From NCBI RefSeq assembly GCF_044324875.1, contig NZ_CP172185.1: 64,000 nucleotides of DNA; one strand, 5' to 3'. Every line of letters starts with the position of its first letter. The stretch's first letter is position 1. A program made the translations under genes and the position numbers. Below, piece after piece: positions 37,116-40,126 of the stretch. The notes below the pieces were generated by a model. That model searched no databases. It saw only the letters and a list, made by a program, of their open reading frames with translations, and had not been told where the DNA came from. The stretch comes from Escherichia coli. Lineage in GTDB: Bacteria > Pseudomonadota > Gammaproteobacteria > Enterobacterales > Enterobacteriaceae.

Positions 37116-38055
37116 TCATTCAACCAAGCTCAAACTGTGCGTATTAAAGGATGCCTAACCTTTTTGTTTCATCGATCCACGGTCTGAATTCTTCCAGTAG
37201 ATTATCATATAACTTTTCATCGCTAATCGAACCGAAATCATCCATGGCAAAGAAGTGGGTGTTATCAACCCGGCGGTCAGTAAAGTCATCCAGATTTTTG
37301 AGGATACCGTAGCTTGAACCACCCAGGCCGACAAACTTCCAGAAGATGGGGTAGTTGGCAGAACGCCGGATTGCATCTTTAATCGCCCGGGTCTTGCTGA
37401 TCCCGCCATCGGTAATAAATACAACATACACTGGGATTTTCGAGTCCTTAAAGTAGTCGACTATTTCTTCCATCACAGGAGGCTCGTTGTTTGTCCCTCC
37501 GAGGCCCGGCAGGTTCTCCCAGGCTGAACGCTTTCCAGCCCCGCGAATGGACTGAATATATGTGTCCAGGTTGTCCAGTGTGACGTTTGGATACTTCTTA
37601 TGCTTCTCTCCAAATCCCCAGACATCCATTTCACCGTCGTCGTCGAACTGGGCGGCAAGAACGGCGATGCGGTCCAGCACAGACTGAACGTTACCCTTAC
37701 TGAACTGGCCACTCATTGAGCCGGATGCGTCAAGTACAAATGCAACCGCTGCCTCAAGGGTGTCCAGTTTATTTTTAGTAAGACTGACCGAGGCTTTTTT
37801 AGCGAGGCTTACAAGGCGCGGAGATCTGGTTTCCAGTTTCTTTTCCAGACTGATACGAGCAGGCTTTGCTGGCTGCGGAGCTGGCTGTGCGACATCAACG
37901 CCATAGCTAATGGCCAGAGGCTCAAGACCACCGTTGAAACCCTGCCCGAGCGCACGAAGCTTCCAGGCGCCATTGTGCCGATATACTTCACCCAGGATAA
38001 TTGAACCGCCCCGGGAATCCTGGAGACTAAACTCCCTGAGAAAGAGGTAAACAGA

Positions 38056-38382
38056 ATGACTAAAAATACTCGTTTTTCCCCCGAAGTCCGTCAGAGGGCG
38101 ATTCGTATGGTTCTGGAAAGTCAGGGCGAATATGACTCACAGTGGGCGGCAATTTGTTCCATTGCCCCAAAGATTGGCTGTACACCGGAGACTCTGCGTG
38201 TCTGGGTACGCCAGCATGAGCGGGATACCGGAGGCGGTGATGGCGGGCTCACCACCGCTGAACGTCAGCGTCTGAAAGAGCTGGAACGTGAAAATCGTGA
38301 ACTGCGCCGCAGTAACGATATCCTTCGCCAGGCTTCCGCTTATTTTGCGAAGGCGGAGTTCGACCGCCTCTGGAAAAAGTGA
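38056..38382 (+). CDS. IS629 OrfA
   Basis: 108 aa HTH protein, first gene of IS629. Confidence 0.9.
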
Positions 38383-39269
38383 TGCCACTGCTGGATAAGC
38401 TGCGTAAGCTGTACGGGGTCGGACCGGTATGCAGTGAACTACATATTGCCCCGTCAACGTATTACCACTGTCAGCAACAGCGACATCATCCGGATAAACG
38501 CAGTGCCCGTGCGCAGCGCGATGACTGGCTGAAGAAAGAGATACTGCGCGTATACGATGGGAATCATCAGGTATACGGTGTGCGTAAAGTCTGGCGTCAG
38601 TTGTTACGGGAAGGAATCAGGGTAGCCAGATGTACAGTGGCGCGCCTCATGGCGGTTATGGGACTTGCCGGTGTTCTCCGGGGTAAAAAGGTCCGCACTA
38701 CCGTCAGCCGGAAAGCCGTTGCCGCAGGCGACCGCGTAAACCGTCAGTTTGTGGCAGAACGTCCTGACCAGTTGTGGGTGGCTGATTTTACTTACGTCAG
38801 CACATGGCAGGGGGTCGTCTATGTGGCGTTCATCATTGATGTGTTTGCCGGATACATCGTGGGGTGGCGGGTCTCATCGTCTATGGAAACGACATTCGTG
38901 CTGGATGCTCTGGAGCAGGCGTTATGGGCCCGTCGACCGTCCGGCACAGTCCATCACAGTGATAAAGGTTCTCAGTATGTATCGCTGGCCTACACACAGC
39001 GGCTTAAGGAAGCCGGATTACTGGCATCAACAGGAAGTACTGGTGACTCGTATGACAACGCGATGGCGGAGAGCATCAATGGCCTTTACAAAGCGGAGGT
39101 AATACACCGTAAGAGCTGGAAAAACCGGACAGAAGTGGAGCTGGCCACACTCACGTGGGTGGACTGGTATAACAATCGACGATTGCTGGAAAGGCTGGGC
39201 CATATCCCACCGGCAGAAGCAGAAAAAGCTTATTATGCTTCCATCGGAAACGATGATCTGGCAGCCTGA
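38379..39269 (+). CDS. IS629 OrfB (DDE transposase)
   Basis: 296 aa IS3-family integrase core, ATGA overlap with orfA. Confidence 0.9.
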
Positions 39270-40126
39270 GTTCACAGATAAAACACTCTCCAGGAAACCC
39301 GGGGCGGTTCAAATTGCTTTCTCACTGCGGCCCTGAGTCTCAGCCTGGAACTCAGCGATTCCTTGAGCCTGCATGCTCAACGAACTGAGCCCACTGATGG
39401 TATCTTCACCATCAATGACAACCGTGATTGCAATTTTACTGATGTTCGCAGGAACACGATCCAGTGCTATCTCAATGCTGGACTGCTGAGAACCGGTAAC
39501 GAGCTTTACTGCCCCTTCAGGAGAAGACAGATTATTGTAAAAGATAAAGTCAGAATCGCCGCTGACCTTTCCCTGAGCATTAAGCAGGAACAGGCAGGTA
39601 TCGGGTTCGCCTTTAAAGCCGGATTTGGTAGGGTACTGAAGATTCAGCCTGATCGCAGATTGCTGAAGTGGTATGTTTTGTCCGGATTGTAGATTCACAT
39701 TAACTCTCCTGATTTTTGATTATTTTAAAGCGCAGCGTTTATATAGGTTCCCCTGGCTTAGTTCAGGACGCTGGATTTCTGGTGAGGCGTATATATGGTG
39801 TGACACCATATTTCATCACGTTGAAGTTTCTATACCTGTTGAATTGGAATTTCCATTGGTCGGGTATTTTATCTTCCAGAACCCGTGCCTTCATAAGTCG
39901 CAAACGTAACATATATCAGAGGGGCATGCTGTTGATATAAGGCACGGAATACAGGTTTTAACCCGCAACCAGAGAAAAATCCGTTTCCTGCCTTTAAAAG
40001 GCTCACGTCAGAATTAACATCACTCTGCTTTCTGAAATTCCCGAACCCTTTCTGCTCCCCCCATCCTGATAGCGGCTCGCAACCAAAAAAAACCCCGGCA
40101 TTGCCGGGGTATGATTCAGCGTTATT

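Follow-up and report, generated by a model that had tools for sequence, protein, structure and literature searches.

An IS629-group insertion sequence interrupts terF in an Escherichia coli tellurite-resistance cluster with intact terZABCDE

We analysed a 64,000-nucleotide stretch of Escherichia coli DNA (contig NZ_CP172185.1; hereafter the window), in which terF, the last gene of a tellurite-resistance (ter) cluster, is interrupted by a complete insertion sequence (IS) of the IS3 family. Very probably, this is a simple transposition of an IS629-group element into terF that made the gene a pseudogene, with normal expression of terZABCDE and unchanged resistance to tellurite, phage and colicin. 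Two IS629-group elements were found in the window; the one inside terF is referred to as copy 2 and the other, upstream in window coordinates, as copy 1. The coordinates of the features are collected in Table 1.

The gene terF extends over positions 37144..39698 on the minus strand, from stop to start, and the interrupting IS lies on the plus strand, its transposase orientation being opposite to that of terF. The state of the site before insertion could be seen in the chromosome of E. coli PK-F-10122, in which one AAT takes the place of the AAT-IS-AAT of the window. The flanks in this empty site are 100% identical to those in the window over 1104 bp on the left (36900-38003) and 589 bp on the right (39312-39900). 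Because the empty site holds one AAT within such flanks, the AAT duplication is not a chance match. An earlier reading of the window, made from the sequence alone (hereafter the sequence-only reading), had placed an IS copy in terF with a 3-bp AAT duplication, and this was borne out. Subsequently, the IS and one AAT were removed in silico, and an open reading frame (ORF) of 1242 nucleotides (413 codons) on the minus strand was restored. Its product matches WP_001053340.1 at 413/413 residues, which is the terF product of plasmid R478 and of PK-F-10122, located downstream of terE; the same gene is labelled 'tellurium resistance protein TerF' in other records. The two halves therefore rejoin in frame to about 413 amino acids, as had been expected. 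Furthermore, the comparison with intact terF indicates that the fragments are one gene, and the possibility that they belong to different genes is contradicted by the 100% identity of the rejoined product with R478 TerF.

In the rejoined TerF, Pfam assigned residues 1-161 to the TerD domain (PF02342, E = 4e-36) and residues 212-412 to the vWA-TerF-like domain (PF10138, E = 3e-69). The break made by the IS comes after residue 129, that is, inside the TerD domain, and not between the TerD and vWA domains, where it had been placed by the sequence-only reading. About 32 TerD residues are lost, including the conserved C-terminal segment. The 5' fragment ends ...SEKAI and is then closed by the TGA, giving a 129-amino-acid stub. 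As for the 3' fragment, its frame is open back into the IS up to an in-frame stop at 38139, and no ATG, GTG or TTG was found in this frame after that stop before the ATG at 37716, which is downstream of the MIDAS motif DASGS. Since this first possible start lies 3' of the MIDAS motif, a functional vWA domain cannot be made. Judged from its reading frames, terF is a pseudogene and not an intact translatable gene. We also observed that the TerD domain of TerF (at about residues 55-75; gene part 39312-39698) is without the acidic stretch of TerD and TerE and has GSQQSS instead; it may be a degenerate, non-metal-binding version of the domain.

Copy 2 was found to be a structurally complete IS3-family element with intact orfA and orfB. 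Its first bases are TGAACCGCCCCGGG, and its other end is the reverse complement of these 14 bases; the inverted repeats agree at 14/14 tip positions and at 23/25 over their whole length, and the TGAACCGCCCCGGG termini are common to copy 2 and to the copies of O157, O111 and other E. coli. The overlap of orfA and orfB contains AAAAAG at 38374-38379. In nucleotide comparisons, copy 2 was 95.0% identical to the IS629/IS1203 of O157:H7 (OrfA, 107/109; OrfB, 283/297), about 95.3-95.6% identical to the Shigella flexneri plasmid copies, and 99.5% identical to the IS adjoining ter in PK-F-10122, and the Salmonella plasmid NZ_CP012931.1 carries a copy 100% identical to it. The near-identical relatives of copy 2 (100% or 99.5%) thus come from Salmonella and poultry E. 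coli. The ISfinder rule for an isoform asks for a nucleotide identity of 90% or more with the reference IS629. IS629 subtypes differ by 4-5% among themselves, with IS1203 and IS3411 regarded as isoforms (PMC3271280). Because of this, and of the divergence of about 5%, 'IS629-group isoform' is the accurate name for copy 2. The label 'IS629' of the sequence-only reading accordingly holds for the isoform group; it does not hold for the O157 element itself.

Each of the six genes upstream of terF, terZ, terA, terB, terC, terD and terE, is full length and has no internal stops. Their products match those of PK-F-10122 exactly and show 0-2 amino-acid substitutions each against R478, so that the cluster is intact through terE as first described. 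The gap between terE and terF is 428 bp, and the folded sequence right after terE resembles an intrinsic terminator; terF looks like a separate unit or one reached by read-through only. Since terF is the last gene and lies beyond both this gap and the terminator-like hairpin, no upstream polarity is expected. Indeed, the earlier expectation that the operon still works through terE agrees with an insertion in the last gene, behind the hairpin. That reading had also suggested an effect on transcriptional read-through. The gap and the hairpin speak against this part of the suggestion on the upstream side, while on the downstream side the 151-amino-acid ORF, 90 bp beyond terF, could suffer polarity; no other gene is exposed to a polar effect of the insertion. 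No Pfam match was obtained for its product. A consensus promoter scan found no minus-strand promoter between terE and terF or between terF and the 151-amino-acid ORF, a result that is uninformative rather than negative.

Several published observations bear on the phenotype. When transposons were inserted into the terF and terE genes of R478, whose TerF protein is identical to the rejoined TerF in this study, the tellurite, phage and colicin phenotypes are cited as having stayed unchanged, whereas insertions in terZ, terC and terD did affect the phenotype (Whelan 1995, cited in PMC12054061). For pTE53, terB, C, D and E are cited as sufficient and terF as one that 'is not important' (Kormutakova 2000, cited in PMC8123226). 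Furthermore, O121:H19 is without terF, the place of which is taken by an IS3 transposase (PMC9729726), and major Shiga toxin-producing E. coli serotypes including O121:H19 are described as being selectively isolated on tellurite media (PMC10132054). In contrast, IS5 in terZ abolishes resistance (PMC8193136). The effect of terF loss on tellurite resistance, which the sequence-only reading had left to measurement, is in effect answered by the unchanged phenotype cited for the R478 terF insertions. For the window, resistance to tellurite, phage and colicin is predicted to be retained, and the interrupted gene is an ordinary pseudogene that is almost certainly harmless. With the essential ter genes untouched and the gene hit already shown to be dispensable, it carries little biological weight; the practical consequences are that the TerD-family and vWA fragments should be annotated as one terF pseudogene, and that a cluster without intact terF should not be taken as tellurite-sensitive.

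Four points weigh against this interpretation. The terminator and the independent transcription unit of terF are predicted only, and the evidence from the R478 terF insertions is second-hand, being taken from its citation in PMC12054061. Loss of TerF may have a phenotype outside the tellurite, phage and colicin assays. Finally, the 129-amino-acid stub could in principle interfere with its TerD and TerE paralogues.

The course of events that we favour would be as follows. An active IS629-group copy would have inserted itself by transposition at codon 129/130 of terF, opposite to the gene in orientation, and duplicated the target AAT. The 5' part of terF would still be able to encode the 129-amino-acid TerD-domain stub, its TGA being supplied by the IS terminus, and the 3' part, with the whole vWA domain and its MIDAS motif, would lose its start and promoter. 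With terF last, behind a terminator-like hairpin and dispensable, terZABCDE would be expressed normally. The IS probably came from some other copy in the genome and not from the neighbouring copy 1, because copy 1 is disrupted in orfB and differs from copy 2 at four positions. A local hop from copy 1 was considered and found to be unsupported: besides the four differences, copy 1 is interrupted by an IS21-family element and its ends lack a target duplication, and a 100% identical copy is present elsewhere, on the Salmonella plasmid NZ_CP012931.1. A repeat search gave an 8-nucleotide flank shared by the two IS copies; the flanks differed on inspection, and the shared flank was rejected as an extension artefact.

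Searches of 5426 complete E. coli genomes, and likewise of 72,556 PLSDB plasmids, gave no case of the exact terF/IS junction. Outside the window it was seen in one contig derived from the Sequence Read Archive (Logan SRR31072984), which is 100% identical to the window over 6415 bp (39284-45698), including 28 bp of the IS end. In the three records that matched the query over its full extent, the IS629-group elements lie elsewhere in terF. The match on plasmid pF1267-1 was discarded; it is an IS3-family element inside IS30 and has no terF context. In the same 5426 genomes, terF DNA was detected in 950 and was full length in only 435; according to sampled rows, almost all of the rest have a 5' terF stub of about 305 nucleotides of the O157 type. 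This stub corresponds to a 128-amino-acid 'TerD family protein' (WP_001053349.1), which is followed by IS1203 and iha. It is found in serotypes that tellurite media are used to isolate, and it supports the prediction of an unchanged phenotype. The rare junction could be a lineage marker within poultry-associated E. coli carrying the chromosomal iol-ter island, and the insertion adds to the cases showing that, within the ter cluster, terF is lost more often than any other part.

Such recurrence raises a first alternative, which we regard as improbable: terF codons of about 127-130, towards the end of the TerD domain, would be a hot spot for IS629-group elements, always inserting in the same orientation, or loss of the TerF vWA domain would be repeatedly selected once ter is chromosomal. 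If true, this would explain the TerD-domain stubs of about 128-129 amino acids in most chromosomal E. coli ter islands, and the insertion would be more than a neutral event. The closest case is O111:H8 7-55 62A (NZ_CP077506.1), where IS1203 lies in terF at 6895-8204 of its locus, only 8 bp from the window site and in the same orientation, as an independent insertion in a terF allele of 92-97% identity. Its junction shows an imperfect duplication, CCC on the left and TCC on the right. Further independent IS629-group insertions or deletions in terF were found in Z1323CEC0010 (target-site duplication CCT), pSLK172-1 (TCC) and TUM9812, where an IS borders a 195-nucleotide terF remnant, and in the O157, O145 and most O111 genomes terF is shortened next to IS1203. 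Two short-read contigs from other samples (L009 and L010) end at the same codon or 2 nucleotides past it. However, these contig ends are ambiguous; the 129-amino-acid product arises from the contig ends and L009 runs 2 nucleotides into intact sequence, and both were rejected as evidence for the junction. The target duplications of IS629 are 3-4 bp long, a sequence-specific target is lacking, and prophage-like elements hold 62% of the IS629 copies (PMC3271280). Moreover, relaxed selection alone would let a dispensable gene on an IS-rich island gather insertions, so that recurrent terF insertions are what is expected there; the break in the O157 stub is not at the IS end; and terF is intact in the 435 genomes mentioned above as well as in most IncHI2 plasmids.

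A second alternative, which is very unlikely, is that the IS alters its neighbours, either by antisense transcription that crosses the stub and reaches the 3' end of terE, or by polarity on the 151-amino-acid ORF, with a subtle phenotype that may or may not concern ter. The transposase frame does point to terE, and the terE hairpin read on the plus strand is without a good T-run and so does not obviously terminate transcription that way; the short distance from terF to the 151-amino-acid ORF, with no promoter between them in the consensus scan, is likewise consistent with polarity. Against this, the scan detected no outward promoter near 39250-39320, and transposase promoters of the IS3 family are weak. 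The R478 terF insertions are cited as giving no phenotype (Whelan 1995, cited in PMC12054061), and the 151-amino-acid ORF is missing entirely from ter islands of the enterohaemorrhagic E. coli (EHEC) type. That an assembler misplaced the IS copy into terF is hardly credible: the IS is a multi-copy repeat and the exact configuration is absent from the complete genomes and plasmids searched, but the perfect 3-bp duplication and seamless flanks are the signature of real transposition and not of a collapsed repeat, and the Logan contig, which may come from the same isolate, has the same junction. Simple transposition into a dispensable terF thus remains the reading that we prefer.

Table 1 Features of the window around the interrupted terF gene and of the neighbouring IS629-group copy.
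Feature	Position	Strand	Remarks
terF 5' fragment	39309..39698	-	GTG start 39698; 129 codons, shortened TerD domain; TGA 39311-39309 from IS terminus
terF 3' fragment	37144..38001	-	End of TerD domain, linker, whole vWA-TerF-like domain
IS629-group IS (IS3 family), copy 2	38002..39311	+	Complete, 1310 bp, from length and inverted repeats
Left inverted repeat of copy 2 (IRL)	~38002-38026
Right inverted repeat of copy 2 (IRR)	~39287-39311
orfA of copy 2	38056..38382	+	108 aa; HTH_Tnp_1, Pfam PF01527, E = 1.8e-12
orfB of copy 2	38379..39269	+	296 aa; -1 frame relative to orfA; rve integrase core/DDE, PF00665, E = 3.5e-27
ALIL frameshift-stimulating pseudoknot	38337..38453	+	Over orfA/orfB overlap; Rfam RF01497, 116.2 bits (gathering score 50), full model 1-117
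Target-site duplication AAT, left	37999..38001		Single AAT at the empty site of PK-F-10122
Target-site duplication AAT, right	39312..39314		Single AAT at the empty site of PK-F-10122
terZABCDE	40127..44677	-	Intact, full length
terZ	44096-44677	-
terA	42939-44096	-
terB	42461-42916	-
terC	41398-42438	-
terD	40771-41349	-
terE	40127-40702	-
Intrinsic-terminator-like hairpin and T-run	40092..40110	-	Right after terE, upstream of terF; 8 pairs (7 GC), TTTTTTTGGT tail; from folding
Hypothetical 151-aa ORF	36598..37053	-	90 bp downstream of terF; identical to WP_000374058.1 of R478/PK-F-10122
IS629-group copy 1	29816..33084	-	Parts 29816-30283 and 32238-33084; 4 mismatches to copy 2
IS21-family element within copy 1	30284-32237		1954 bp; IstA 340 aa, IstB 260 aa; 5-bp target-site duplication GCAAA

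With respect to the wider context, positions 11091-53416 of the window run collinearly with the chromosome of PK-F-10122, the identity being 99.8-99.98%. Compared with PK-F-10122, the window has exactly two extra insertions, namely the IS in terF and the 1954-bp IS21-family element in copy 1, which is absent from PK-F-10122. The terF gene is intact in 4/4 chromosomal relatives covering the region, and its flanks are 99.9% identical to R478 and many IncHI2 plasmids. The ter cluster, of the R478/IncHI2 type, lies in a chromosomal island beside the iol (myo-inositol) catabolic cluster. This island (about 11091-53416) is common at 99.8-100% identity to the chromosomes of the poultry-associated E. 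coli PK-F-10122, HCM-27C-1, TUM9803 and Br_112_kylling, and the ends of the window also match poultry-associated E. coli chromosomes.

Two 2655-nucleotide IS21-family copies, inverted and 100% identical, were found at 1928-4582 and 53489-56143; they encode IstA (548 amino acids) and IstB, and the element is named ISEc62 in the relative TUM9803. The pair brackets 48.9 kb in which a sitA-like gene, IS66 elements, the iol cluster and all of the ter cluster are found, an arrangement that, as read from the sequence, is composite-transposon-like. The second copy lies within an IS66 transposase gene (53026-53652 / 56106-57242). Beyond it, at 57745-61620 on the minus strand, is a 1291-amino-acid ORF for a serine protease of the S6 family (SPATE-like), in which no Pfam autotransporter beta-domain match was obtained at E < 0.001. 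It is followed by an AbgT-family transporter gene (61932-63491, minus strand), and those poultry E. coli chromosomes show conservation of both.

Both partners in this insertion, R478 TerF and the IS629/IS1203/IS3411 group, as well as its outcome, a functional ter cluster without terF, are already known. The terF gene resembles that of R478, an IncHI2 plasmid of Serratia marcescens (NC_005211.1), in its position after terE, in the 151-amino-acid ORF downstream and in the TerD plus vWA-TerF-like architecture. It differs in being interrupted after codon 129 and in that the cluster lies in a chromosomal island by the myo-inositol cluster and not on an IncHI2 plasmid. In published ter typing, ter-type 2 is the IncHI2-plasmid type, and a chromosomal exception was noted in Salmonella (Nguyen et al. 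2021, PMC8193136); the ter operon of the window has the R478/IncHI2-like sequence of this type and lacks its IncHI2 plasmid location. Copy 2 shares with the IS629/IS1203/IS3411 group of Shigella and EHEC the length of 1310 bp, the terminal repeats, the -1 frameshift between orfA and orfB, the ALIL pseudoknot and the 3-bp duplication. Unlike the IS629 of O157 and of Shigella plasmids, it is diverged by about 5% of nucleotides, which is the distance between the published subtypes (PMC3271280).

Among known terF disruptions, that of O111:H8 7-55 62A concerns the same gene in the same orientation, with both terF halves retained. Its IS isoform (95% identical), EHEC-type terF allele and junction are different, and with its site 8 bp away, we rejected it as the same event. 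The O157:H7 stub, found in tellurite-resistance islands of the SpLE1/OI-43/48 type, is also similar in that it is a TerD-domain ORF of similar length with IS629/IS1203 adjoining and with terZABCDE intact. In O157:H7 F6667, where the stub lies at 6311-6738 of its locus, TerF homology extends to about residue 102; after it come 26 codons of unrelated sequence, and about 42 bp separate the stop from the start of IS1203. The O157 stub was likewise rejected as the same insertion, its terF homology ending about 80 nucleotides earlier with unrelated sequence before the IS. In O157:H7 the stub has lost the vWA part by deletion, with iha lying beyond the IS, whereas in the window both halves of terF are kept around a clean, reversible-looking insertion.

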